A stretch of DNA of 64,000 nucleotides from an uncultured Pseudomonadales bacterium. Its GTDB lineage: Bacteria; Pseudomonadota; Gammaproteobacteria; Pseudomonadales; Azotimanducaceae. Within the stretch, counting starts at the first letter, position 1; every line of letters starts with the position of its first letter. This document shows, piece by piece, positions 1-14,733 of this stretch. The position numbers were made by a program, and so were the translations under genes. Location: assembly GCA_943846605.1 (NCBI GenBank), contig OX044361.1:2098673-2162672 (forward strand), given 5' to 3'. The notes under the pieces were generated by a model. That model was given only the letters and a program-made list of their open reading frames with translations. It was not told the origin of the DNA and did not search any database.

Positions 1-213
1 GACCGGCATGGCATAAACCAGCGCGGCGTAGCTGCCGTATAACAGGCCCGCATCTCGATCACCAAATAAGAAGTGTTTGGTGAGGTAAAGAATCAGTAAT
101 GCCCGCATGCCGTAATAACTGAATCTTTCCCACATTTCCGTCAGAAATAAAACATATAAGCCGCGAGGGTGGCCCATGAGTTCACCCTGCGGGTGGGGAA
201 TTGTAGTATTCAT
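1..213 (-). CDS. POT/PTR family peptide:H+ symporter, 5' part only (runs off window start)
   Basis: Not in the ORF track. Manual translation from ATG 213 gives [71 protein letters not shown], containing the POT-family GHP..L and [12 protein letters not shown] signature. Confidence 0.93.
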
Positions 214-459
214 AAATTTAATGGCATTAGATGTTTGGTTTAACACGACAAATTCAGTGTGCTGTATGTCGCGAGCGCGGCAGTGCACAACGTCGTCGCA
301 AGATGGTGCTGATTGATAAAAATGTCAACTTGATAAGGGTTATTGTATCTTTGTATTGTGTATTTAAGAGCTTCCGGTATCTGTTAAGGCGGGTTCCGCC
401 GGCTGTGGTAAGGCGCCTTTATGAATTTTTATCCGTTTTTGCAGCCCTGTTGAGATCCT

Positions 460-834
460 ATGCCTAAGCCAGGAGAAACCGGATTTGCGCGAATTTATTC
501 TGCGACTCGTTATTCGTGGCAGGGATTAACAGCTACTTGGGAAAATGAGTCAGCGTTCCGACAAGAGTGCGTGTTAGCCGCTGTGCTCACCCCGGTCGCT
601 GGTCTGCTCGCCGAGAATGTGACTCAATGGATATTGCTGATCGCAGTAATGGCGGTTGTGCTGATTACTGAATTATTAAATTCTGCCGTCGAATCGGTTG
701 TTGACCGCGTTGGTGATGAAATGCATGAATTGTCTGGTCGAGCCAAAGACCAAGGCTCCGCTGCTGTATTTGTCTCTCTGAGTCTTGCGGTTTTTGTGTG
801 GTCGTCAATTGTGGTGGCAAATTTCTTGATTTAA
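460..834 (+). CDS. dgkA: Diacylglycerol kinase (DgkA family)
   Basis: 124 aa, hydrophobic. Motifs YSWQGL, E.AFRQE, ELLNSAVESVVDRVG and HELSGRAKDQGSAAV match prokaryotic DAGK. Confidence 0.95.
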   Translation: MPKPGETGFARIYSATRYSWQGLTATWENESAFRQECVLAAVLTPVAGLLAENVTQWILLIAVMAVVLITELLNSAVESVVDRVGDEMHELSGRAKDQGSAAVFVSLSLAVFVWSSIVVANFLI

Positions 835-845
835 CGCTTGGCACT

Positions 846-2093
846 TTACGTCACTTTGCTCCGCCGCCGGCGGGCTTTTAGTTTTTTTCGGCCAGCGGCT
901 TTGCCTGAGCTTTTGACGCGAACGGGGCCGCGGTAATTAGCCACCAAACCAGAGACTTTGCGGTGCGTGAAGCGGGTTTTTAAATGTCGTTCGATACGCG
1001 ACATCTGGTTCCATTCGGTGGAATCCACTAGGCTGATTGCAGTGCCTGTGCGGCCTGCGCGGGCAGTGCGGCCGACTCGGTGAATATGATCGTCAACTGA
1101 TAAGGCGACATTGAAGTTAATGACCAAGGTGATGCCTTGGATATCAATGCCTCTAGCGGCCACGTCTGTGGCCACTAAAATACCGAATTGACCGCTGCGG
1201 AATTGGTTGATGATGCGTTTTCGGTCCCTTTGTGAGAGTTCTCCGTGTGTAAAATCGGCGCGAAGTTTATGGGCTTTCAATGCGTTGCCAAGTGCTTGGC
1301 ATTGTTTGCGCGTATTACAAAAAATAATCGAGCGCGGCGCCTGTTCTTTTGCCAATAACGCGATTACCAACCGTTTTTTGTGCTGCAGATCATCAGCCAG
1401 CACAACCTGTTGTATCAGTGAGGTTTGACTCTGCTGATGAGGATCAATTGTGATCGTCTGCGGGTCGTGCAGGAAGGTGGCGATGTCCCAGGTGTGCTGT
1501 TGCGAAAGAGTGGCCGAGAACAACAAGGTTTGGCGTTGATGTGGACAGGCCTTGGTAATCGTTTTTACTTCAGGTGCAAACCCTAATTCCAGTATGCGGT
1601 CCGCTTCGTCTAGCACCATCATGTCGAGTTTACTGAGATCAACGGTGGCTTTTACGATGTGTTCAACAAGCCGCCCCGGGGTGGCGATGATGACTTCGGG
1701 TTGTTTGTCGATATTGGTGCGCTGCCGGCTAAAGGTTTCTCCGCCGATTACGAGCACGCAGCTAAGATCTGTATGGCGGGCGAGAGTCTCAAAGGTTCTT
1801 CGCGTTTGTAGTGCTAATTCTCGGGTCGGCAGTAAGATCAGCAGACGCGGCGCGCTCTTGGAATCGCAATTGTTGAGCAATTTATGCAAGGCGGGCAGCA
1901 TAAATGCGGCTGTTTTGCCGCTACCGGTCTTGGAGCAAACAATTAAATCTTTGTCCAATAGCACCTGCGGTATGGTTTGGGATTGAACCGCGGTGGCTTC
2001 TATAAATCCCGCTTCCTCAGCAGCGCGCAGCAAATGGGGGTGTAATGAAAATTGTGCAATCACCGGCGGATAATAGCCTGCCTGCTCTGACAA
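846..2093 (-). CDS. srmB: DEAD-box RNA helicase, SrmB-like
   Basis: SKTGSGKT, PTRELA, TPGRL, LDEAD, SAT, ARGID and HRVGRTARAGR (TAR variant as in SrmB), plus a basic C-tail. The real start may be GTG 2063. Confidence 0.85.
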   Translation of the reverse strand: MSEQAGYYPPVIAQFSLHPHLLRAAEEAGFIEATAVQSQTIPQVLLDKDLIVCSKTGSGKTAAFMLPALHKLLNNCDSKSAPRLLILLPTRELALQTRRTFETLARHTDLSCVLVIGGETFSRQRTNIDKQPEVIIATPGRLVEHIVKATVDLSKLDMMVLDEADRILELGFAPEVKTITKACPHQRQTLLFSATLSQQHTWDIATFLHDPQTITIDPHQQSQTSLIQQVVLADDLQHKKRLVIALLAKEQAPRSIIFCNTRKQCQALGNALKAHKLRADFTHGELSQRDRKRIINQFRSGQFGILVATDVAARGIDIQGITLVINFNVALSVDDHIHRVGRTARAGRTGTAISLVDSTEWNQMSRIERHLKTRFTHRKVSGLVANYRGPVRVKSSGKAAGRKKLKARRRRSKVT

Positions 2094-2290
2094 TACTGCT
2101 TTTGTTTAGACAAGGTTCGAACGATGGCTAGGATGACGCTGGCGTGCATCGCAACGATAAGCCATTGACTTCTTGCTTGTTAGATATGAGAGAATAAAAA
2201 GCGGTGCTGCAAGTGTTGGCGCGCCCTTTAATGGCGTGAATAAGAAATATAAAAGCGTAAGTAAGCAATAGCCTCTAGGCAGGGAATACG

Positions 2291-2635
2291 ATGGCATATG
2301 AGTTGACGGGAAAGATTAAACTGATCCAAGACACCCGAACGTTTGATAGTGGGTTCACCAAACGCGAAATGGTTGTGATTGTTGATGACGGTAGGTATCC
2401 GCAAGAAATAAATCTTGAGTTTGTGCAGGATAAGGTGGCGCTGCTTGAAAGCCTCAGGCCAGATCAGGAAGTGACGGTGACCTTTGATATTCGTGGCCGC
2501 GAATATAATGGCCGATATTTCAATAATCTTCAGGGCTGGAAAGTTCAGGCGGCTGATGATGGCGAGGCGCTTCCTCCAATTGATGCTAATTATCCCATGC
2601 CCGAAGATTTTGATGACGAAGACATCCCTTTTTAG
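2291..2635 (+). CDS. DUF3127 family protein (OB-fold-like) with acidic SSB-like C-terminus
   Basis: GFTKREMVV, YPQEINLEFVQDK, VTVTFDIRGREYNGRYFNNLQGWK, ending DFDDEDIPF. AGGGA RBS upstream. Confidence 0.85.
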   Translation: MAYELTGKIKLIQDTRTFDSGFTKREMVVIVDDGRYPQEINLEFVQDKVALLESLRPDQEVTVTFDIRGREYNGRYFNNLQGWKVQAADDGEALPPIDANYPMPEDFDDEDIPF

Positions 2636-2680
2636 GGGCTGTGTGTTGATCATCCCAACTGGCTGGGAGCGTTGATCGCT

Positions 2681-2701
2681 AGGCAGTAGGCAGTAGGCAG
2701 T
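2681..2701. repeat. Heptamer tandem repeat (AGGCAGT)x3 in convergent intergenic gap
   Basis: aggcagt aggcagt aggcagt read directly; a short hairpin TCCCA-ACTGGC-TGGGA lies at 2653-2668. Confidence 0.8.
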
Positions 2702-2723
2702 CAGCGCAGCAGAGGCGGACTGT

Positions 2724-3599
2724 TCACTGATTTTGTGCGATGACTGGCGGCTTTAATTTTCGTAGGTAGAGGATAGATATCAGGATTAAGAGCATCGGCA
2801 GGGGCCACTTTAAGGCGTAGCTGACATGCTCAAAATAATATTTTTTGGTGATGAAATGTTCAACGTCTCGCCACTCTTGAAATTCTTGCCGGTATAGGTC
2901 GAGAAAAAATGATTCGTCTGTTTTTGTATACCCGGCGTTGACATACCGACTGGCGAGCGTGTCAGGGTTTTGTGCCCAGGTTGGTTTCCTGGTCATTGCG
3001 GTAACGCCAAAATCCGCGTCGAGTATGGCCTGCTCGCCGTTGTTAAATGTGGCCAAGACCACTACATGTCCAGGAAAGCTCAGTATCGTATTTTCTATGC
3101 CCTGTAGATCCAAGACTTGTGAAAGTATCATAGAGGCGTCACCGCAGATGCCGATGCCTCGCTTTAGGCTTTTTTTATAGTCCGCGAATTGGTAGCGCCG
3201 GTACTCTGGAATGGTAGAAAATTTGCCCATGAAATGTAGAAAGTAATTTTCCCAAACCGGAATCCGTTGATTGAACTGTGCAGGGTCGTATCTTTCCCAA
3301 TGGATATGCGCCAGACCATCGTCGATGACCTGTGTGACTCGCATCGCATAAGCCCGGTCTGTTTCGTTCTGTTTCCGTGTCAGATCGGTCATTGTTTGTT
3401 GGTAATTTGTAGGTTGATCACCGTAAAAACGCAGTTCACTGTTAAAAAAGTGATTCACCCGCATGTTCTGAAACAGGCCATAGATATTGATTGCCAGCAA
3501 TGTCGCGCCAATGCAAAAGGTGAGTTGAATTAGCCTTTTTTTTAGCTTAGACAAAGGTATCACCGGACGCGCTTTTGATGAGCGCGACCTCTGCCGCAA
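2724..3599 (-). CDS. Membrane-anchored protein with transglutaminase-like (Cys-His-Asp) domain
   Basis: N- and C-terminal hydrophobic helices. GICGDASMILSQVL...FPGHVVV...ILDADFG gives a C-H-D triad in transglutaminase-like spacing. Lies 8 bp downstream of the large heme-protein gene. Confidence 0.7.
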   Translation of the reverse strand: MRQRSRSSKARPVIPLSKLKKRLIQLTFCIGATLLAINIYGLFQNMRVNHFFNSELRFYGDQPTNYQQTMTDLTRKQNETDRAYAMRVTQVIDDGLAHIHWERYDPAQFNQRIPVWENYFLHFMGKFSTIPEYRRYQFADYKKSLKRGIGICGDASMILSQVLDLQGIENTILSFPGHVVVLATFNNGEQAILDADFGVTAMTRKPTWAQNPDTLASRYVNAGYTKTDESFFLDLYRQEFQEWRDVEHFITKKYYFEHVSYALKWPLPMLLILISILYLRKLKPPVIAQNQ

Positions 3600-3607
3600 A
3601 GTATAGC

Positions 3608-6600
3608 TTACTGGTCATGCGCAACTGAGAAGGTGCGCGTGACGCGGTTGATATTACCCTGATGGTCTTTGATTGAAATCGAAAGGGTGCCGGTGAATCC
3701 CTCTGCAAGGGGTTCTAGCAAAGGGTAAACGTAGACACCATCATTTGCGGAGCTGAATAAATAGTTCAAGTTTTCTCCTGCTGGGTAACCATCGATTTCG
3801 AAATCAGCTGTAACGGACAGAGAATTGATGTCGATGCCTGAGTATGCATCAGCGAAGCCAATAATAAGTTTTTCAACCGGTTTTTGATTTTGACCCTCTC
3901 TAGGTGCTGAGACGGTCAATACTGGACGTAGGTCGTCGGCAAACCAGCCATAACCTTGTTTTGTTTCGCCGCGGCTCTGATCGATGGCACATCCCAGATC
4001 AATCCAACGGGCAAAAGTCATTTTTTCTTCAGTTGTCAGTGGGGCGTAACCTTCACCGGGAATCGGCATGATGCTGCCTACCAGATCAAGGTCAGCGTCG
4101 TTGATACGAGCGCCGGGCGGTAAGGTATTGGCATCACCAAGGACTGCCGCACTGGGATGGCTGCTATTGTCCCAGCCGTCGGTCCGCTGCCCCCATAATT
4201 TCCACATGAGCAGGCTGCGTCGGCTTTGAAATTTTCTGACATAGCGGCTTGCATTGGTTTGACGCCAGCTCCCAACTAAAGGGGGGATGCCCCAAGTCGC
4301 TTTAGGATCGTTACATAGCCTTGCATAATCGCCAGGTAATCCGTCGTAATTGTTCAGATCGTCAAGTACCAGATCTGCAGGCGGTGTGTCATTTGTTGTC
4401 GTATGGCAACCGACACATTTGCTTTCTAACACAGGCCGGATGTCTTTGAAGAATTCGACGTCTACGGCGGTGACATCAGTTTCTTTGATGATTGGATGAC
4501 CGTTGGTGTCCTGACTCACCAGAGGTGTTTTTTGTGTGAGGTCCCAAACCGCATAATCGGGGCTGGCAGCGGCAGTGGTTTGGAAATCGAGTGATTGCTG
4601 GCTGTGTGAATGACAGCCGCCACAGGTTCTCAGTTCACCGGGTCGCACCTGATGCCAAGTTTGAGATGCATTGAGCACGGCACCGTTTTTATCAATGGTC
4701 TGGAAGGTAAATGGTGCATCGGCAGGGATTTTTGCCAGGAAACTGGTGTCGGGGTTGCCCTCGAGGTCCATAACAGCCGAGCCGTCTGAGTTATATTTAC
4801 GCAGGGGTATTTCACCCAGAATCCGCAGCCGTTCGTTGGCATGATTGTGGAACCATACACCACCTTCGGGGTTAGAATTAGGGCCATAACCGCGATCTGG
4901 GTTGGGCTCCATGAGCAAAATTCGCAGTGCCCAAATATCGCTGTTGTCGTAGAGACCAGCGTCAGCACCTTGACTGATCCAATTCGTGCTTTGATGATTC
5001 TCGCTGGAATTAAATGCGTCTAAGCCATCCCAATTTTCACCGATTGAGTTAGGCGCGCTGCCTCGTTTGTACAAAGTGCTGGCACCAATAAGGCCATAAG
5101 GGGTGCCCTCAGGCAACATTGGGTGTTCGCGACCATCGTTGGGAAGCCAAGGGAGTTCTTTGGGTTCGGGTATGCCGTGGATAGACTCATAGGGTACAAC
5201 AGCGCGGGGCCAAGCCTCGTTGAAGTTGGGGTCATTTTTGATGAGGATGAGTTTGCTCATATCATCCACGGGCTCTCCGCCTGCCATTATATAGATGCCG
5301 GAGTCGACGGCGGGCCAGGGGGTAGGTCGGTTGAGTTTGTTGACTGGACCATCGGACCAGGCGACCAGTAAGTCATTATTGGGTGCTGCTGACGGATGTG
5401 TGTACTTGCCATAACCGTCGATTGCTGCATTGTCGTTTGAGGTTGACAGTGGAGTGATTGAAGATAACCCTTTGGGAGTAAAAGGCATTCGCATAGTCCC
5501 TTGATCATTATGCTTTATTTCAGGGTTTTTAGTGATGTCAGGGCTATGGAAGGCCGGTTGGTTCGAATCTGTGTGTTGAGGAATGCGGTATAGAGAGCCG
5601 AAGCCAAAGTTATTCAGGTTGTAGTAGTTCTCGACTACCACGCTTCGGTCAGACAACTGTGTTGTGAAGTGAAAAACTTTGGGTTGGTCAAAGGCACTGG
5701 CTACGGGTTCCCAGTAACGGCCGTCGGGCCATATGGACCAAACGCCCCACAGGCGATGATCGCGTAACCCTTGGCTTTCGTAGCTGCTAAACATGATTCT
5801 GCCATCTGCCAAAGGGGTCGGGTGTAGCGCAGAACTGTTGGTCATGGGAGCTATTGGCGTGACATTTTTGGTGTCTAAATCCATCACGAAGAGTTGCATG
5901 GTGGGGTAAGAAAACCCTTTGGTCGGGCGAAACCCGTTGCGATTGCTGGTGAACACTAATTTGTTTCCGGCAATAGGCGCAGGTGCTGTATTTAAAATGC
6001 CATAGCCCATTCGGTTGGCACCAGTGGCTGGGTCCACGGGGTTGCTTTCATCCCATTGGCCGGTTCCGGTGTTGGGGGTGAATTCCTGAAAGGTCAGTTG
6101 TTCAATTTGTCGCGTGGTGAGATGCAGACGGTAAATATCTGAGCCTCGCTTGGGTAAATTGCCGCGTTGATAATTGAGGTTTTCTTCGCGTAAATCGTAG
6201 AAATGGCTGTAGTAGACCCACTGCCCATCAAAAGAAATGAACGGGTCGGTGATTGCGCCGTGCTCAGTATCAATTAAGACCTCTTCGGAGCCATCGGGAT
6301 GCAGCAGCATGAGATCAGAGTTGACTGCAAGCTTTGCCGGATTAACCCCTGCCCATTTGATATGCGCATGATCACCAGCACGTGGTTTTCTAACGTAGAC
6401 GATATCATAGTCGACGGGCGCTGCTTCATCCCTGATTTGATCGCCAATGCTAATGACGTCAATGGGGTTTATTGCAGCTTGAACGGTCACGGTAATGCTC
6501 GATTGACTTTCTCCGCCGGCGCCCGAGCAGCGCAGAGTAAATTGAGTGTCGCCGGATAGGGTGTCGGAGCGAAAGCTTCCCTGTAAGGGTTGAGGACCAT

Positions 6601-7843
6601 TGAAACCGCCATCTGTACTTGATGCATAGCATTGCTGGGCATCTGTGCTGTCCCAATTCAACTGCGCATTCGAGTTGGCCTCTAGGTGCGCAGATACTGT
6701 TTCCAGGCGAATAGTAGGCTGGCGCTTGTTTTCAGGAAGGTTGGCGCTTTGGTTGATCTCCTCATCGGAAAGGCTGTTGCCTTGAGCGATGTCTTTGGCG
6801 ATGTTTTCGATAGTGTTTTTTACTTGGACGTCGAAGGTCCGGTCTGCGACTTCCCGAACAGAGTCAGGTTCGGTGCCTTCCAAAGAGCCCATGACATGGG
6901 TGAGCGTTGAATCGGGATGAATATTCTCGACAAGTGCTATTGCTTTTAGCAGTCCAGTGATGCTCCGGTCGCTCACAGGCACGTCGCGAACATCAATTGA
7001 GGCTGCTTCTGGCAAGATTGACGTGATTGCGGCATTCATTGCCGAGGTGGCCGTAAAGCCGTCAACCTGCAGGCGGCCCGCGAGCACTTCCAAGCGAATC
7101 CCTATCTCGACGGTTTTGGTTACCGCGAGAAGTCTGGGATCACTGGTTTTGCTGATATCGTATGGTTGGGGGTTTGCTGTTGTGTCAGCAAAGTTGCAGG
7201 CCATCGCGTTAATGGTTTCATCCATTGTTTTTTCTGGATATTGTGCGTCGACGCGGCGGATCCATTCTGCCGACGCTTCGTTAGACAAGGTGGCGGTAGC
7301 GGCGTTGCTTGGGTCAATTGTGCTGCGCAGAGGGTGATAGGATTGAGTAGGGTCTAGTCCAATATCGAGATTTTCCTCCACACTGGACCATAACGCATTG
7401 AGATGTCCTTCGGTTTCGTTGTTAGCGCATTTTGCTGCCTTGGCAACGAGTGTGGATATTGGGGACAGGTTGGCTGTCTGATCGCCTGATCTGGCAACCA
7501 AGGTTGTCATCTCGAAGTCGGCTGCACGATTAGTGACCAAGTCTGTTCCGCCGGAGGCCGTTATGCTGATCGGGAGCGGAGTGTTTTCCGGCAATTCGAT
7601 TGAATAGCTGGCAGATTGGTCGCTAGTACCTTGGGCTATCAGGATTCCGTTTGCGTCAAAAACCCGAATGTCAGCGCCGACAACGGGGCCATCAAACACT
7701 CGGCCTGAAAGCCGAAACTCGGCTATTTTTTGGACCGGCTCAGAGGCGATTGGCGCTGGAGAAGGGCTTGAACTGCCGCCACCTGAGCAGCCGCTCAATA
7801 AAAATAAAGAACCCATGACATTCGTGAGCAAATTGTTTTTCAT
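3608..7843 (-). CDS. Large lipoprotein: beta-sandwich/Ig-like stalk + beta-propeller + HzsA-like middle domain + cytochrome c domain (two CxxCH) + C-terminal Ig-like domain
   Basis: Lipobox LSGC after ATG 7843 (track starts at GTG 7852). PD40-like repeats (DPFISFDGQWVYYS, LVFTSNR, PTPLADGRIMFS). KIPADAPFTFQTIDKNG..QTWHQVRPGELRTCGGCH matches the hydrazine synthase alpha middle-domain pattern. FFKDIRPVLESKCVGCH...EEKMTFARWIDLG resembles planctomycete-type cytochrome c. Confidence 0.8.
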   Translation of the reverse strand: MKNNLLTNVMGSLFLLSGCSGGGSSSPSPAPIASEPVQKIAEFRLSGRVFDGPVVGADIRVFDANGILIAQGTSDQSASYSIELPENTPLPISITASGGTDLVTNRAADFEMTTLVARSGDQTANLSPISTLVAKAAKCANNETEGHLNALWSSVEENLDIGLDPTQSYHPLRSTIDPSNAATATLSNEASAEWIRRVDAQYPEKTMDETINAMACNFADTTANPQPYDISKTSDPRLLAVTKTVEIGIRLEVLAGRLQVDGFTATSAMNAAITSILPEAASIDVRDVPVSDRSITGLLKAIALVENIHPDSTLTHVMGSLEGTEPDSVREVADRTFDVQVKNTIENIAKDIAQGNSLSDEEINQSANLPENKRQPTIRLETVSAHLEANSNAQLNWDSTDAQQCYASSTDGGFNGPQPLQGSFRSDTLSGDTQFTLRCSGAGGESQSSITVTVQAAINPIDVISIGDQIRDEAAPVDYDIVYVRKPRAGDHAHIKWAGVNPAKLAVNSDLMLLHPDGSEEVLIDTEHGAITDPFISFDGQWVYYSHFYDLREENLNYQRGNLPKRGSDIYRLHLTTRQIEQLTFQEFTPNTGTGQWDESNPVDPATGANRMGYGILNTAPAPIAGNKLVFTSNRNGFRPTKGFSYPTMQLFVMDLDTKNVTPIAPMTNSSALHPTPLADGRIMFSSYESQGLRDHRLWGVWSIWPDGRYWEPVASAFDQPKVFHFTTQLSDRSVVVENYYNLNNFGFGSLYRIPQHTDSNQPAFHSPDITKNPEIKHNDQGTMRMPFTPKGLSSITPLSTSNDNAAIDGYGKYTHPSAAPNNDLLVAWSDGPVNKLNRPTPWPAVDSGIYIMAGGEPVDDMSKLILIKNDPNFNEAWPRAVVPYESIHGIPEPKELPWLPNDGREHPMLPEGTPYGLIGASTLYKRGSAPNSIGENWDGLDAFNSSENHQSTNWISQGADAGLYDNSDIWALRILLMEPNPDRGYGPNSNPEGGVWFHNHANERLRILGEIPLRKYNSDGSAVMDLEGNPDTSFLAKIPADAPFTFQTIDKNGAVLNASQTWHQVRPGELRTCGGCHSHSQQSLDFQTTAAASPDYAVWDLTQKTPLVSQDTNGHPIIKETDVTAVDVEFFKDIRPVLESKCVGCHTTTNDTPPADLVLDDLNNYDGLPGDYARLCNDPKATWGIPPLVGSWRQTNASRYVRKFQSRRSLLMWKLWGQRTDGWDNSSHPSAAVLGDANTLPPGARINDADLDLVGSIMPIPGEGYAPLTTEEKMTFARWIDLGCAIDQSRGETKQGYGWFADDLRPVLTVSAPREGQNQKPVEKLIIGFADAYSGIDINSLSVTADFEIDGYPAGENLNYLFSSANDGVYVYPLLEPLAEGFTGTLSISIKDHQGNINRVTRTFSVAHDQ
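3789..6382. repeat. Direct repeat copy A (~2.6 kb), near-identical to 8281-10874
   Basis: Constant offset of 4492 bp; shadow ORFs recur with that offset (4078/8570, 4630/9122, 5020/9512). Six substitutions spotted by eye: 3796, 3820, 4961, 5817, 5835, 5914. Confidence 0.95.
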
Positions 7844-8051
7844 CACCAACACTTTCCCGATAATTAGGCGGATATTTCGCGTAAATTCGAAAGAAAGTTT
7901 ACGGTTCTGCGCCTGGGATCATGTGATCTGCAGCACAGTTTGTTCGAGAAATGTAAATGTGTGAGGTAGTTCTAAAAAGCAGGCTTATTGGCGCGGGCTA
8001 ACGCTTCCAGATTGGGGGCATTGCATGCGTGTAAGTTCGCCTTAAAACGCT

Positions 8052-10943
8052 TTACCGCGGCGAACCTGTTGAGGGGCTCTCATAACCTGCTGAGGATAAA
8101 AAGGCTTTTTTTTCGATGCTAAAGGGCCGGCTGACACGATTAATGTTGCCTTGAAGATCTCTGACCGATACAGACAGTGTGCCCCGTAAATTGTCGGCCA
8201 ACGGTGTTTCCAGTTGATATTGATAAATGCCATCGGCGATTGATTGAAAGCGATCTTTCAAATTTTGACCCGCGTGTATGCCATCGACTTCGAAATCAGC
8301 TGTAACGGACAAAGAATTGATGTCGATGCCTGAGTATGCATCAGCGAAGCCAATAATAAGTTTTTCAACCGGTTTTTGATTTTGACCCTCTCTAGGTGCT
8401 GAGACGGTCAATACTGGACGTAGGTCGTCGGCAAACCAGCCATAACCTTGTTTTGTTTCGCCGCGGCTCTGATCGATGGCACATCCCAGATCAATCCAAC
8501 GGGCAAAAGTCATTTTTTCTTCAGTTGTCAGTGGGGCGTAACCTTCACCGGGAATCGGCATGATGCTGCCTACCAGATCAAGGTCAGCGTCGTTGATACG
8601 AGCGCCGGGCGGTAAGGTATTGGCATCACCAAGGACTGCCGCACTGGGATGGCTGCTATTGTCCCAGCCGTCGGTCCGCTGCCCCCATAATTTCCACATG
8701 AGCAGGCTGCGTCGGCTTTGAAATTTTCTGACATAGCGGCTTGCATTGGTTTGACGCCAGCTCCCAACTAAAGGGGGGATGCCCCAAGTCGCTTTAGGAT
8801 CGTTACATAGCCTTGCATAATCGCCAGGTAATCCGTCGTAATTGTTCAGATCGTCAAGTACCAGATCTGCAGGCGGTGTGTCATTTGTTGTCGTATGGCA
8901 ACCGACACATTTGCTTTCTAACACAGGCCGGATGTCTTTGAAGAATTCGACGTCTACGGCGGTGACATCAGTTTCTTTGATGATTGGATGACCGTTGGTG
9001 TCCTGACTCACCAGAGGTGTTTTTTGTGTGAGGTCCCAAACCGCATAATCGGGGCTGGCAGCGGCAGTGGTTTGGAAATCGAGTGATTGCTGGCTGTGTG
9101 AATGACAGCCGCCACAGGTTCTCAGTTCACCGGGTCGCACCTGATGCCAAGTTTGAGATGCATTGAGCACGGCACCGTTTTTATCAATGGTCTGGAAGGT
9201 AAATGGTGCATCGGCAGGGATTTTTGCCAGGAAACTGGTGTCGGGGTTGCCCTCGAGGTCCATAACAGCCGAGCCGTCTGAGTTATATTTACGCAGGGGT
9301 ATTTCACCCAGAATCCGCAGCCGTTCGTTGGCATGATTGTGGAACCATACACCACCTTCGGGGTTAGAATTAGGGCCATAACCGCGATCTGGGTTGGGCT
9401 CCATGAGCAAAATTCGCAGTGCCCAAATATCGCTGTTGTCGTAGAGACCAGCATCAGCACCTTGACTGATCCAATTCGTGCTTTGATGATTCTCGCTGGA
9501 ATTAAATGCGTCTAAGCCATCCCAATTTTCACCGATTGAGTTAGGCGCGCTGCCTCGTTTGTACAAAGTGCTGGCACCAATAAGGCCATAAGGGGTGCCC
9601 TCAGGCAACATTGGGTGTTCGCGACCATCGTTGGGAAGCCAAGGGAGTTCTTTGGGTTCGGGTATGCCGTGGATAGACTCATAGGGTACAACAGCGCGGG
9701 GCCAAGCCTCGTTGAAGTTGGGGTCATTTTTGATGAGGATGAGTTTGCTCATATCATCCACGGGCTCTCCGCCTGCCATTATATAGATGCCGGAGTCGAC
9801 GGCGGGCCAGGGGGTAGGTCGGTTGAGTTTGTTGACTGGACCATCGGACCAGGCGACCAGTAAGTCATTATTGGGTGCTGCTGACGGATGTGTGTACTTG
9901 CCATAACCGTCGATTGCTGCATTGTCGTTTGAGGTTGACAGTGGAGTGATTGAAGATAACCCTTTGGGAGTAAAAGGCATTCGCATAGTCCCTTGATCAT
10001 TATGCTTTATTTCAGGGTTTTTAGTGATGTCAGGGCTATGGAAGGCCGGTTGGTTCGAATCTGTGTGTTGAGGAATGCGGTATAGAGAGCCGAAGCCAAA
10101 GTTATTCAGGTTGTAGTAGTTCTCGACTACCACGCTTCGGTCAGACAACTGTGTTGTGAAGTGAAAAACTTTGGGTTGGTCAAAGGCACTGGCTACGGGT
10201 TCCCAGTAACGGCCGTCGGGCCATATGGACCAAACGCCCCACAGGCGATGATCGCGTAACCCTTGGCTTTCGTAGCTGCTAAACATGATTCTGCCATCTG
10301 CCAAAGGGATCGGGTGTAGCGCAGAATTGTTGGTCATGGGAGCTATTGGCGTGACATTTTTGGTGTCTAAATCCATCACGAAGAGTTGCATGGTGGGGTA
10401 AGAAAGCCCTTTGGTCGGGCGAAACCCGTTGCGATTGCTGGTGAACACTAATTTGTTTCCGGCAATAGGCGCAGGTGCTGTATTTAAAATGCCATAGCCC
10501 ATTCGGTTGGCACCAGTGGCTGGGTCCACGGGGTTGCTTTCATCCCATTGGCCGGTTCCGGTGTTGGGGGTGAATTCCTGAAAGGTCAGTTGTTCAATTT
10601 GTCGCGTGGTGAGATGCAGACGGTAAATATCTGAGCCTCGCTTGGGTAAATTGCCGCGTTGATAATTGAGGTTTTCTTCGCGTAAATCGTAGAAATGGCT
10701 GTAGTAGACCCACTGCCCATCAAAAGAAATGAACGGGTCGGTGATTGCGCCGTGCTCAGTATCAATTAAGACCTCTTCGGAGCCATCGGGATGCAGCAGC
10801 ATGAGATCAGAGTTGACTGCAAGCTTTGCCGGATTAACCCCTGCCCATTTGATATGCGCATGATCACCAGCACGCGGTTGATTGACGTAGATGATGTCGT
10901 AGTTGACGGATGCAAAAGTAGCTGTGCCGGGAAGGCCGCTCAT
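8052..10943 (-). CDS. Second HzsA-like di-heme beta-propeller protein (short form, no stalk); true start probably upstream of ATG 10943
   Basis: Same core as 3608..7843 including CGGCH and CVGCH, with diverged N- and C-termini. The frame stays open upstream to a stop at 11052-11054 and encodes a signal-peptide-like segment. Confidence 0.85.
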   Translation of the reverse strand: MSGLPGTATFASVNYDIIYVNQPRAGDHAHIKWAGVNPAKLAVNSDLMLLHPDGSEEVLIDTEHGAITDPFISFDGQWVYYSHFYDLREENLNYQRGNLPKRGSDIYRLHLTTRQIEQLTFQEFTPNTGTGQWDESNPVDPATGANRMGYGILNTAPAPIAGNKLVFTSNRNGFRPTKGLSYPTMQLFVMDLDTKNVTPIAPMTNNSALHPIPLADGRIMFSSYESQGLRDHRLWGVWSIWPDGRYWEPVASAFDQPKVFHFTTQLSDRSVVVENYYNLNNFGFGSLYRIPQHTDSNQPAFHSPDITKNPEIKHNDQGTMRMPFTPKGLSSITPLSTSNDNAAIDGYGKYTHPSAAPNNDLLVAWSDGPVNKLNRPTPWPAVDSGIYIMAGGEPVDDMSKLILIKNDPNFNEAWPRAVVPYESIHGIPEPKELPWLPNDGREHPMLPEGTPYGLIGASTLYKRGSAPNSIGENWDGLDAFNSSENHQSTNWISQGADAGLYDNSDIWALRILLMEPNPDRGYGPNSNPEGGVWFHNHANERLRILGEIPLRKYNSDGSAVMDLEGNPDTSFLAKIPADAPFTFQTIDKNGAVLNASQTWHQVRPGELRTCGGCHSHSQQSLDFQTTAAASPDYAVWDLTQKTPLVSQDTNGHPIIKETDVTAVDVEFFKDIRPVLESKCVGCHTTTNDTPPADLVLDDLNNYDGLPGDYARLCNDPKATWGIPPLVGSWRQTNASRYVRKFQSRRSLLMWKLWGQRTDGWDNSSHPSAAVLGDANTLPPGARINDADLDLVGSIMPIPGEGYAPLTTEEKMTFARWIDLGCAIDQSRGETKQGYGWFADDLRPVLTVSAPREGQNQKPVEKLIIGFADAYSGIDINSLSVTADFEVDGIHAGQNLKDRFQSIADGIYQYQLETPLADNLRGTLSVSVRDLQGNINRVSRPFSIEKKAFLSSAGYESPSTGSPR
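8281..10874. repeat. Direct repeat copy B (~2.6 kb), near-identical to 3789-6382
   Basis: Begins ccatcgac.. at 8281 versus ccatcgat.. at 3789; identity breaks after ..atcaccagcacg at 10874/6382. Confidence 0.95.
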
Positions 10944-11213
10944 GGCGATAAGGATCAGAAGGCGGATCCTGTCAAAGATAATCTTACGACCGGTCGCACA
11001 AAGACAGCTGCTGTTGGATTTGATGAAGGAAATACCTAAGTTTTGTTGATTTTAGGGTGTCAAAGGGTTCTTCGAAGGATGCAATTTGAATGCCAAAGGA
11101 GATAAATATCAACAGATCAATAGGTTACGAATATAGGTTTATCTTGGGGGGAGGTAAGTGTAAAAAATCATGACAATCGGATGTGTTTTCACCCGGCACT
11201 ACGTCAATAAATT

Positions 11214-12590
11214 TTACAGTGTTTTTGGCCCCTTTTTGAGGCTGTACAGCGGCAGCTGAGCAATACGCGCATCGATATTTGCGCGTGCGGTTGAGTACAG
11301 GCTGCTGTCTAGATTGCCGTAGTTTTGGGCAAATTGTGCCGCGCTTAATCCTTCGGGTAAGTCGTTGATATCCGGGAAAAAAAATGCCGGATCACGCAGC
11401 GCCTGTGCATGCTGCTGGATCCTTTCTGCGCTTTTTGGGTCGAGTGCCATATCCGTGAATTTCAGTCCTGCGCGGTCTGCGGCAAGGTCTGCGAAACTAA
11501 ATCCGCTGCCACCTTTTCCGGCGTCTGCTAACTCTTTTAACTCGCCGATGGCGAAACTCGTTGCCGTGTTTGTGATGAGTTGAACTGCCGCTGAAACAAT
11601 AAAATGTTGGCGTAAATCTTTGCGGCCCAGCACGGTGACCGCATCTCCCACAGGGCGGCAGTCTTTGCGAGATTGCGCGACATCACCGATCAGTGTTTCG
11701 AAGAGGTCACTGCCGAGCAAGATAGATAGGGACAACAGCGCTAATTTATTTTCGGTGGCTGGTTTTTGGCTCAGTTCAGTGCGATATCGGGCGTAGCTAA
11801 ATGCCCAGGCGAGGTAATCGCCAAGTTGGGCATCGGGTGCGGCTTTGCCCTGGTCGCAAATATGTGCAAAGTAGTCGTGTACGCTGTCGGGATCGCTCAG
11901 CAACTGGAACTGATCGCGCATTGCAAAAGCGCGTGTTCTGAGCCCACCGGCTTGATTAACCAGATCGCCGAGGGGCCCGTAATTAATTTGGATCGCGCCG
12001 GGCAATATGTCTACGTGGTGAACAGCGGCAAATAGCTGATCACCAAGTTTTTTGTCCAGTGTTTGGTTCACCAACCAGCGTGCCGATGCGATCAACCATT
12101 GGCCGCGCAGGCTGATTTCGCCCACGCTCAAGGTATCAAATATGAGCTTTCTATCCTCAGCTATCAACGTCAGCGTGAGGTTGATGTATCGGCCTAGTGG
12201 ATTTTCTGGTATCCGTGCGGTGGCGTTTAGGGTCAACTTGCCGTTGTTGATCTCAACTTGTCCCGCGAATGCGACAACATCACTGATTGTTCGTTGCGCA
12301 AAGGCCACGATAGTATTGGCCGCGTTTTCTGTGATTGTTGTGGCGACCAAGTGGTGTTCCGCGCGCGCGATGTCTTTGATGATTGTTCGCATGAGCCGGT
12401 TGGCGGCCGCTGCCTCGTTGCCGGTTAATGGTTTTGATAACGTTATCAGAGGCTGGTTGCTGCTGATTGTGCTCAGGAGCGTGATTACGATGACCATGGC
12501 CATTATCACCACGTAGACAGTGCGTCTCAGTACGCGCAATGGCCAAGCATCTTTGGGCTTAGGGATAATGTTTGCATTGACAGAGGTCAT
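11214..12590 (-). CDS. Uncharacterised membrane-anchored protein with C-terminal YfiM/DUF2279-like motif
   Basis: N-terminal TM helix. C-terminal QHFIVSAA...GELKELAD..GGSGFSFADLAADRAG resembles the QHF..SA / KE..D / GSG.S..DLA.D.AG pattern I recall for YfiM. Confidence 0.6.
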   Translation of the reverse strand: MTSVNANIIPKPKDAWPLRVLRRTVYVVIMAMVIVITLLSTISSNQPLITLSKPLTGNEAAAANRLMRTIIKDIARAEHHLVATTITENAANTIVAFAQRTISDVVAFAGQVEINNGKLTLNATARIPENPLGRYINLTLTLIAEDRKLIFDTLSVGEISLRGQWLIASARWLVNQTLDKKLGDQLFAAVHHVDILPGAIQINYGPLGDLVNQAGGLRTRAFAMRDQFQLLSDPDSVHDYFAHICDQGKAAPDAQLGDYLAWAFSYARYRTELSQKPATENKLALLSLSILLGSDLFETLIGDVAQSRKDCRPVGDAVTVLGRKDLRQHFIVSAAVQLITNTATSFAIGELKELADAGKGGSGFSFADLAADRAGLKFTDMALDPKSAERIQQHAQALRDPAFFFPDINDLPEGLSAAQFAQNYGNLDSSLYSTARANIDARIAQLPLYSLKKGPKTL

Positions 12591-12702
12591 TTTCAGGCGT
12601 GGTTATGGTGCAACCAACAACGGTTAGGGCACCATAAATGATTCGGCGTGGTACAAACGCTGATGGTAACCTAGTTTTTCCCTCGAATCGCCGGATATCG
12701 CC

Positions 12703-13548
12703 TTGAGTACTCAATTGAGTAAAAGTGTCACGCTTGAAACGCCAGCCAATCATGTTGAACTAATCTGTGTCAACAACCTATGGGCTCATGCATCGATCAG
12801 TCTATTTGGTGGACATTTGCTCAGCTATGTCCCGAGCTACGACCAGCGCGAACGGTTGTGGTTAAGTCGCGATGCTTGGTTGGATGGCACGCGATCCATA
12901 CGCGGTGGCGTGCCAGTATGCTGGCCATGGTTCGGCGATCATCCCGCTAGAAATTTACCCGCGCATGGCTACGTGCGAAACCAACAGTGGCGGCTTGTCA
13001 GCAGCGTTGATACAGACGATGCCACCATCGTTCGCCTGCGCCCATGCGCGATACAAAATGCAATGAACGAAGATGGGCTTGAGTTAGAGCTTAGCATCAC
13101 AGTGGGTCGACAGCTCACACTTGCGTTAAGCACCCGAAATACAAGCGATAGGCCGCGTAACTTTGGCGCTGCTTTGCACAGTTATTTCGAAATCTCAGAT
13201 ATTCACAACACGTGTCTTAAGGGATTGAGCGGGCAATGCCTAGACAAAACTGAAGACTTTGCTCGTAAAGTGACGCCGAATCCTTACCTTTTCGAAGCCG
13301 AAACGGATCGGATTCACGTGCACCCGGGAAACCGCTGCTGGATCGAAACACCCGATTATGCAATCGAGGTTAACTCTCGCGGCCATGACAGTGTTGTAGT
13401 GTGGAATCCTTGGCGTGCAAAATCAGCGGAACTTGAAGATTTTCATGACGAGGGTTTCCAAAGCATGCTTTGCGTTGAGTCAGCAATCACTCAGGGATTC
13501 ACCTTGGCTGCTCAGCAGACGCATACACTCACCCAGACCTTTGCCTAG
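12703..13548 (+). CDS. yeaD: D-hexose-6-phosphate mutarotase (aldose 1-epimerase family)
   Basis: IRGGVPVCWPWFG, HGYVR, ALHSYF, ETDRI, VVWNPW and MLCVE motifs. Confidence 0.93.
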   Translation: MSTQLSKSVTLETPANHVELICVNNLWAHASISLFGGHLLSYVPSYDQRERLWLSRDAWLDGTRSIRGGVPVCWPWFGDHPARNLPAHGYVRNQQWRLVSSVDTDDATIVRLRPCAIQNAMNEDGLELELSITVGRQLTLALSTRNTSDRPRNFGAALHSYFEISDIHNTCLKGLSGQCLDKTEDFARKVTPNPYLFEAETDRIHVHPGNRCWIETPDYAIEVNSRGHDSVVVWNPWRAKSAELEDFHDEGFQSMLCVESAITQGFTLAAQQTHTLTQTFA

Positions 13549-13632
13549 CGATAGGCCTTGGGTTGGCATTGTTGGCCAACAGGCTGTTGTGGACTAGGCG
13601 GCGACTTGTTTTTGTGTGGATAAATGCTCAGG

Positions 13633-14733
13633 TCAAGTCAGCAGATCTTGATAGAGCTCGCTGTACTCATGCGCCATTCGTTGAGCTGAAAAGTGCTCAA
13701 CAATAAACTGTCGGCCGGATTTTGCCAGTTGCTCAGAAAGGGCTTTGTCGAGGAGTAATTGCTCCCAGCAGTCGGCCAGTGCCGCCTGATCACCGTAAGT
13801 AGCCAGCAGCCCCGTTGTGTTGTGGGTCACCAATTGGTCTATGCCAGGGATATCATAGGCAGCGACGGGGATTTGCATGGCCATCGCTTCCATGAGACAG
13901 CGCGGTATGCCTTCAAGTTTTGATGTCATCACAAATAGGTCAAATGTCTTGAGCCAGTTCAGTCTGTTTTCCCGAAAACCAAGAAATGTGATGGCCTCTG
14001 CTGCCGCGGAAGCTTGAGCGTAGGCCTGCATTTCTTCGAGCTGATCTCCGTCACCCAGTAGCACTAACTCGAGGTTGTGATGTTTCGCGGCCAGGGTGTT
14101 GAAAATATCGATGATATCCACCAGGTTTTTGCGCTGGGTGATCTGGCCGATGAAGCCGATGCGTTGTTTATGCATCGGTTTTTCGCTTTCATCGGCGGCA
14201 GTAACTATCAGTTGGTCCACTTCGTCGATGTCGACGCCGTTTTGAATATAATCTACTTTGTCCTGGCGGACGCCAAGGTCTTGCATATCTCTGCACAGCT
14301 GTCGTGACAGCGGAACAACTCGGTCAAACCACTTCAGGAACTTGTTGCCGATAGTGAAGTACAGCTTCAGCTTCCAATCATTAAGTCCCACAAAACCGTG
14401 GGGGGTAGATATCGCCTTGATTCCGCACAAGCGTGCGGCAAGCAAGCCGATGATGTCTGATTTGTAGCCGTGAGTGTGGATGATGTCGATCTGTTGTGAC
14501 CGGATCAACTTTGCAAGCTGCAAAATCATTCGCAGGTCAAAACGACCTCCAACCTTAATTTGGTGGACCGTTTTCCCCAATGCCGAGTATTCACGCGCGA
14601 GTTCTACATGTCCGTTATCTGCTTCTAACGTAATCGCAAGATCGCAGGGCATCATTGGATCGTTCATATTCTTGCCCAACGCGAGTATCCAGCGTTCTGC
14701 ACCGTAAAAGCCGCTTGGGCAGGTAAACTGCAA
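13633..14733 (-). CDS. Glycosyltransferase family 4 (GT-B, retaining); start codon uncertain
   Basis: GFYGAERW, IIHTHGYK, HGF, IQNGVD and the EGIPRCLMEAMA (Ex7E) motif. TTG 14733 falls inside the first beta-strand (LKILQF). Confidence 0.9.
   Translation of the reverse strand: MQFTCPSGFYGAERWILALGKNMNDPMMPCDLAITLEADNGHVELAREYSALGKTVHQIKVGGRFDLRMILQLAKLIRSQQIDIIHTHGYKSDIIGLLAARLCGIKAISTPHGFVGLNDWKLKLYFTIGNKFLKWFDRVVPLSRQLCRDMQDLGVRQDKVDYIQNGVDIDEVDQLIVTAADESEKPMHKQRIGFIGQITQRKNLVDIIDIFNTLAAKHHNLELVLLGDGDQLEEMQAYAQASAAAEAITFLGFRENRLNWLKTFDLFVMTSKLEGIPRCLMEAMAMQIPVAAYDIPGIDQLVTHNTTGLLATYGDQAALADCWEQLLLDKALSEQLAKSGRQFIVEHFSAQRMAHEYSELYQDLLT

Follow-up and report, generated by a model that had tools for sequence, protein, structure and literature searches.

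We found that two neighbouring genes of an HzsA-related family in an uncultured marine Pseudomonadales bacterium (Azotimanducaceae; assembly GCA_943846605.1) share a 2594-nucleotide (nt) core that is almost identical, inside gene ends that are anciently diverged, and that this near-identity is very probably the result of interlocus gene conversion between old tandem paralogues. The genes, called A and B here, lie in a window of 64,000 nt (the whole stretch of DNA that was analysed; contig OX044361.1, positions 2,098,673 to 2,162,672), whose source genome is a single 3.56-Mb sequence. All coordinates below are those of the window unless marked otherwise, and the parts of the two genes, taken from the open reading frame (ORF) list and profile matches, are as follows.

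3608..7852, minus strand: gene A, an HzsA-related di-haem beta-propeller protein with an N-terminal lipoprotein extension (ORF list, Pfam PF18582)
8052..10943, minus strand: gene B, HzsA-related and of the usual family length, 963 amino acids (aa) from ATG 10943 (ORF list, Pfam PF18582)
3789..6382, minus strand: near-identical core, copy A, spanning the beta-propeller and the two CxxCH haem sites, plus the first half of the C-terminal beta-sandwich
8281..10874, minus strand: near-identical core, copy B, with six differences from copy A
3608..3788, minus strand: 3' tail of A, diverged from that of B; 59 codons and a stop codon, making up the second half of the C-terminal beta-sandwich
8052..8280, minus strand: 3' tail of B, diverged likewise; 75 codons and a stop codon, exceeding the A tail by 16 codons
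6383..6418, minus strand: diverged head of A (PVDYDIVYVRKP), directly 5' of the core in gene orientation
10875..11054, minus strand: diverged head of B (SVNYDIIYVNQP), with ATG 10943 and an upstream in-frame signal-peptide-like stretch (..KIIFDRIRLLILIAMSGLPGTATFA)

The two core copies were compared at a fixed offset of 4492, with difference sites given on the plus strand as copy A/copy B. Between 3789-6382 and 8281-10874 there are exactly six differing sites: 3796 T/C, 3820 G/A, 4961 G/A, 5817 G/A, 5835 C/T and 5914 A/G. All six are transitions, three of them clustered at 5817-5914; four are non-synonymous (F/L, S/N, T/I and I/V) and two are synonymous (Asp and Leu). An earlier reading of this DNA made from the letters and their ORFs (the sequence-only reading) had reported the same offset, the same transitions with the same coding effects and the same cluster, and had called for an exact alignment of the copies; that alignment and the codon comparison reproduce its description. 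Core divergence is 0.23%, with a synonymous divergence (dS) of 0.005 and a non-synonymous divergence (dN) of 0.002. A search of the entire genome found exactly two copies of the core, and its GC content is ordinary, with no sign of foreign origin.

Outside the core, identity drops abruptly on both sides, to about 50% within 10 nt of either edge. The first 30 nt past the tail-side edge are ~50% identical; beyond the head-side edge there are 36-39 nt at ~72-74% identity, and then homology stops, B running into its signal-peptide-like stretch and A into its N-terminal extension. The sequence-only reading had described the flanking gene parts as homologous yet far more diverged, and this holds, the peptides that it quoted (PVDYDIVYVRKPR and SVNYDIIYVNQPR, and the tails GYPAGEN.. 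and GIHAGQN..) being present as quoted; the diverged homologous stretch is short, spanning ~165-180 nt 3' of the core and ~36 nt 5' of it, and the remaining extra length of A (~1.4 kb) has no counterpart in B. In an AlphaFold2 (AF2) model of B, the tail-side boundary falls after residue 888, between strands four and five of the C-terminal beta-sandwich (~842-943), so that the model places it in mid-domain and not at a domain border.

The tails are as diverged as the core is uniform. Over 55 aligned codons, A and B are 52.7% identical in nucleotides, 24% at third positions and 54.5% in amino acids; synonymous sites are saturated and the tail dS is undefined. The heads are 74% identical in nucleotides, with a dS of 0.72 over 13 codons. 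In the family, where tail identity is 50-60% (500 pairs), the core is 50-81% identical (65% on average), and A and B combine 54.5% in the tail with 99.5% in the core; across the 2278 family pairs, core identity nowhere else exceeds 81% where the tails are so diverged. Furthermore, the A and B tails are mutually nearest (54.5% versus at most 52% to any of ~190 homologues), and a maximum-likelihood tree of the tail puts them in one small clade with a support of 0.79 and an A-B distance of 1.1 substitutions per site. Because the tails are nearest relatives and nevertheless this far apart, A and B are paralogues of deep age and not a fresh duplication. Conversion between older paralogues, which the sequence-only reading had proposed, is thus well supported by the contrast between saturated tails and the core dS, and by the outlying position of the pair in the family. 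Tail and head similarity to 119 homologues gave no usable signal for naming the donor copy.

A recent duplication of a whole gene, with its ends diverging fast under positive selection, would dispense with conversion, and it is at their ends that the proteins differ in localisation (signal peptide against lipoprotein module) and perhaps in partner binding; such a duplication would also make the tails each other's nearest relatives, as they are. However, the tail third positions are at random-level identity right beside a core of very low dS, and amino-acid selection has no means of saturating synonymous sites only a few codons away from an identical tract, which makes a young duplication highly improbable. 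Equally hard to credit is an assembly artefact, in which an assembler or polisher either homogenised moderately diverged paralogues or wrote a collapsed repeat twice. Such homogenisation, the main alternative of the sequence-only reading, does occur at this locus in other assemblies and can largely be set aside for the present genome. At 90% identity, A and B fall in a protein cluster of 62 members drawn from many metagenomes, and 37 loci of the same species, with flanks ~99.9% identical to the window, were compared. A scan of JGI metagenome contigs for an exact match to the tail-side core end gave none, probably for want of near-identical records in it. Short-read assemblies of the locus give both copies the same alleles at 5914, 5835 and 5817, leaving 0-3 differences, and often break at the repeat edges or insert a gap of N. 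Five contigs from other samples (L120, L121, L123, L124 and L126), with Flye-style names and sizes of up to 2.35 Mb, carry both genes with 6-8 core differences, and their copy-specific alleles at 5914, 5835, 5817, 3820 and 3796 match the window. Three of the five have single-base homopolymer indels typical of long-read consensus; the long-read origin of all five is taken from names, sizes and error type. The window itself retains its six differences, and collapse cannot make razor-sharp edges beside 50%-identical flanks. Since the five long-read-type contigs repeat the differences in the same copy-specific phase, the copies are truly near-identical, with about six real differences between them, and the homogenising done by assemblers, which also occurs, is a separate matter. 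The step in divergence is present in independent assemblies and across the natural population of the species.

One contig, L107, seemed to lack B; in place of the B core it has a 100-N scaffold gap, which fits the behaviour of assemblers at this repeat. In L120 all four indels lie in the B gene, three of them single-base insertions, and none in the identical A core; in L124 two of the four indels lie in the B core and none in the A core. These B-only indels are probably due to uneven polishing of one repeat copy and not to real pseudogenisation.

In the sequence of events that we favour, B and A would be old tandem paralogues encoding exported di-haem beta-propeller proteins, of which A gained a lipoprotein anchor module. 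Non-reciprocal homologous recombination would then have made 2594 bp of coding sequence virtually identical, while the last ~57 aligned codons and ~12 mature N-terminal codons escaped and stayed anciently diverged. Both junctions occupy exactly homologous positions and are in frame, from which we take it that the exchange was homology-guided at either end and probably of the RecA type. Concerted evolution by interlocus gene conversion is a familiar process, as in tufA/tufB of Salmonella and E. coli, a chromosomal pair that non-reciprocal recombination holds near-identical along a defined tract, the sequence beyond it being diverged. In contrast to that pair, the copies described here are tandem and co-oriented, the tract ends within homologous coding sequence and part-way through a folded domain, and a 470-aa anchor module is attached to one copy.

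Conversion could have acted in two ways. We think it likelier that the core has been held homogeneous more or less continuously since the duplication, as in long-term concerted evolution, than that it was overwritten once, although we are less certain of this than of conversion as such. A single recent overwrite, in which paralogues ~65% identical throughout had the core pasted by one rare homeologous or template-switch event, would account for the razor-sharp edges with their ~50% identity right outside and no gradient, and for internal differences that are few and all transitions, as expected of new mutations after one event. However, homologues at ~65% amino-acid identity share only 0-1 exact runs of at least 20 nt across the core; divergence at the level of the tails thus leaves almost no identical runs of 20 bases or more from which recombination could start, and in-register recombination would be very rare. 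The differences are also enriched at one edge and polymorphic there, which would fit repeated events. Together, these observations favour continuous homogenisation and make a single overwrite rather unlikely.

The edge signal comes from variation within the population. In reliable assemblies, variation at sites 6071 and 3916 is confined to B and that at 3836 to A, and 4961 varies in A. Two of the six differences, those 8 and 32 nt inside the tail-side edge, lie near enough to the tails to be linked to them by k-mers, and both are polymorphic; finding two of six within 32 nt of this edge has a post hoc binomial p of ~0.009. Beside the A tail, the haplotype at 3820/3796 is CA in 21 contigs, TA in 2 and TG in 3; beside the B tail it is TG in 22 and CG in 2, the latter being one record fetched twice. 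All four two-site haplotypes thus occur, and three fit a simple mutation series: TG to TA to CA can be such a series in A, and CG in B needs a short exchange or recurrent mutation. The enrichment and the polymorphism at this edge fit weaker homogenisation at the tract end, with at least one further exchange or recurrent mutation. Among flank single-nucleotide polymorphisms (SNPs) with a minor-allele count of at least 2, there are none in 3.6 kb (1.7 kb upstream plus 1.9 kb in the middle) and three in 3.8 kb downstream. By the divergence of the core, the last homogenisation is recent; because the flanks are almost without polymorphism, it appears to be slightly older than the common ancestor of the sampled population, or to overlap with it.

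Several observations weigh against this account, or against its continuous form. The ~50% divergence right outside the tail-side edge shows no gradient, which slow erosion of the edge alone does not predict, so that either a discrete event or a long-stable boundary held by selection is needed. No second species with an orthologous B/A pair was found in same-genus genomes, GTDB representatives or a set of 5.8 billion proteins: 24 same-genus genomes gave domain-level matches only, the A and B genes being absent, and the nearest homologues (at most 63% identity in GTDB representatives and at most 66% in the protein set) are single-copy nearby. The phase of the six SNPs in this assembly rests on its agreement with other assemblies. 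The calls of C at 4961 in B come only from two contigs with a badly polished B copy and were not counted as shared polymorphism. Finally, a 100-N gap follows immediately on a different tandem repeat of 100% identity in this genome, so that its assembly is not free of faults at repeats.

The sequence-only reading had also suggested that a crossover between the repeats would delete 4492 bp, remove the lipoprotein stalk and leave one in-frame chimeric short gene, and might so act as an anchored-versus-released switch. The arithmetic holds: a crossover in the core gives the 4492-bp deletion and an in-frame gene of 947 aa (B head plus A tail), as checked against the proteins P0009 and P0019, and this chimera occurs in five public contigs from five samples, namely ERZ807291, ERZ651775, JGI 3300025876, JGI 3300050182 and the sample behind GCA_022426285.1. 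A direct repeat of 2.6 kb is, moreover, a good substrate for RecA-dependent deletion, and occasional RecA-mediated deletion between such repeats is expected. The switch itself, in which crossovers in the core would regularly alternate an anchored and a released enzyme in cells or populations, is unsupported and we consider it very unlikely. The five chimera contigs are 3-11 kb short-read assemblies with mosaic interior SNPs, three of them labelled with 2.7-6x coverage. Since the deletion form contains no k-mer lacking in the two-copy form, an assembler can build the deletion path from two-copy cells, and the 947-aa contigs are no evidence for a deletion event. The complementary path, through the last ~100 nt of the B core, the middle segment and a complete A, is equally common (L108, L129 and L131-L133), and every contig above ~30 kb, like every long-read-type contig, retains both genes. 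The deletion state thus appears only in short-read contigs that cannot tell it from two copies. A deletion cannot revert, which makes it a loss and not a phase-variation switch, and the B head that the chimera inherits has no canonical start codon, so that release of an exported protein is not assured. Among the same-species contigs, no flank SNP marks a deletion lineage, the three downstream sites being uninformative.

In L102-L106, L108, L129 and L131-L133, short-read assembly has taken the collapsed 2.6-kb repeat along either of two paths, and one of them produces the 947-aa chimera, which is now in public databases, including NCBI nr and the metagenome-assembled genome GCA_022426285.1.

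A and B are HzsA-related proteins and not hydrazine synthase proper. The Pfam domain PF18582 (HZS_alpha middle domain) scores 55.4 bits in A and 57.0 bits in B against a cut-off of 26.6, and a genome-wide profile search recovered both HZS_alpha sites of A and B. The NCBIfam equivalog for hydrazine synthase alpha, NF052339, gives ~50 bits against a cut-off of 800. By sequence, both proteins match PDB 5C2V_A across both haem sites, B with an E value of 2.9e-8, the CGGCH and CVGCH of the A/B protein aligning with the CSGCH and CAMCH of HzsA. The AF2 model of B, made with 78 family sequences, has a pLDDT of 82.9 and a pTM of 0.87, and its best fold match in a Foldseek search of the PDB is again 5C2V_A (E 1.8e-28, TM 0.61). 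Like HzsA of Kuenenia stuttgartiensis (5C2V chain A), the protein has a beta-propeller at its N-terminus, followed by a middle and a C-terminal domain, each with a CxxCH haem site; it differs in being only 16% identical and in carrying an extra C-terminal beta-sandwich. The hosts differ as well, the present one being a marine gammaproteobacterium of the aerobic heterotroph type, and the family extends to many non-anammox phyla: UniRef names it 'HzsA-related protein', and it occurs in Planctomycetota, Acidobacteriota, Chloroflexota and many Gammaproteobacteria. Its members are typically 960-1050 aa long, often with added surface-type modules, and we found essentially no literature on the function of the family. 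The same genome has a gene for the haem-maturation protein CcmF.

The remaining features around the two genes are as follows.

6419..7852, minus strand: N-terminal extension of A (~470 aa), without counterpart in B
7853..8051, no strand: intergenic spacer between B and A (ORF list)
11214..12590, minus strand: upstream neighbour U, 458 aa, with an N-terminal membrane helix (ORF list)
2724..3599, minus strand: downstream neighbour D, 246-291 aa by the start chosen, a membrane protein (ORF list)

Read from GTG 7852, gene A encodes 1414 aa; public records start it at ATG 7843, which gives 1411 aa, and over 40 public contigs contain this 1411-aa protein in identical form. Its extension consists of a lipoprotein signal peptide, a Ser/Pro linker, a CarboxypepD_reg-like beta-sandwich, a helical part and an Ig-like part, with weak Pfam matches to PF13620 and Big_6. 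The translation contains the lipobox LLSGC (MKNNLLTNVMGSLFLLSGC), which by inspection agrees with the consensus [LVI][ASTVI][GAS]C, and the product is accordingly a predicted bacterial lipoprotein. Sequence comparison found no homology of the extension to B, U or D, and in 80 other loci it was not seen beside HzsA-like genes; its homologues, at 32-37% identity, are solely other large proteins without an HzsA part. The same module (6419-7852; proteins P0002-P0006) recurs at the N-terminus of large Ig-like or Reeler-like proteins at this level of identity, and it looks like a portable anchoring module.

In all homologues the head motif begins the mature protein and is directly preceded by a signal peptide. 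In B, the signal-peptide-like stretch (KIIFDRIRLLILIAMSGLPGTATFA|SVNYD; 10911-11054) is in frame and lies upstream of, and spans, the first ATG at 10943; before it there is no ATG, GTG or TTG, only ATT, ATC and CTG codons. Judged from these codons, either a rare start codon would be used or B would not be exported. A scan of the B-A spacer found no convincing minus-strand promoter or terminator, nothing scoring above shuffles, and Rfam gave no RNA family in window 1-14000. U and D are not conserved beside homologues in 80 homologous loci and have no family match in profile scans, in which no search aimed at HzsB or HzsC was made. A 7-nt indel polymorphism lies at ~2702, between D and a DUF3127 gene, in L123 and L126, and shifted gene coordinates in L111, L114 and L116 suggest the same indel.

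The genome holds other near-identical repeats. Its tufA/tufB genes are 99.9% identical over 1220 nt, and there are two further tandem sets of near-identical exported redox proteins; because of these three cases, intrachromosomal recombination is evidently active in this genome. At C1:1849447-1856711, two tandem 910-aa multicopper-oxidase-like genes are 100% identical over 2863 nt, the identity beginning inside otherwise differing signal peptides, with an SCO1/cytochrome-c-like ORF between the genes; a 100-N gap begins exactly at the end of the second repeat copy. At C1:520156-533553, a peroxidase-like di-haem ORF of 826 aa (CASCH, CVACH) is present in three copies, ~3 kb each and 99.7-99.9% identical, and a PEP-CTERM-tailed ORF lies between copies. 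Setting aside tuf and one intragenic repeat array (C1:1000433-1004186, in a gene exceeding 1690 codons), every large near-identical repeat in the genome consists of tandem exported redox proteins.

The process described here is ordinary gene conversion, or concerted evolution, and reveals no new mechanism. The locus provides a natural example of a conversion tract that ends inside a folded domain, backed by many metagenomes of one very clonal marine species. It also carries a caution, in that short-read assemblies of it erase true differences between the paralogues and create chimeric 'deletion' genes that are entered in databases as 947-aa proteins. Of some interest is the pairing of a soluble-type copy with one of the lipoprotein type: this marine gammaproteobacterium, which is associated with blooms, has kept two copies, predicted to be differently targeted, of a di-haem protein from a widespread family. 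It is conceivable, though doubtful, that they form a two-isoform system, with a free periplasmic B translated from a non-canonical start and a tethered A, conversion retained by selection, a boundary held by selection within the last domain and real one-copy (947-aa) cells produced in blooms by unequal crossing-over in the 2.6-kb repeat. If so, conversion would keep the catalytic cores of the two proteins co-evolving, and one-copy cells would give the population a polymorphism of both copy number and localisation for a redox enzyme.

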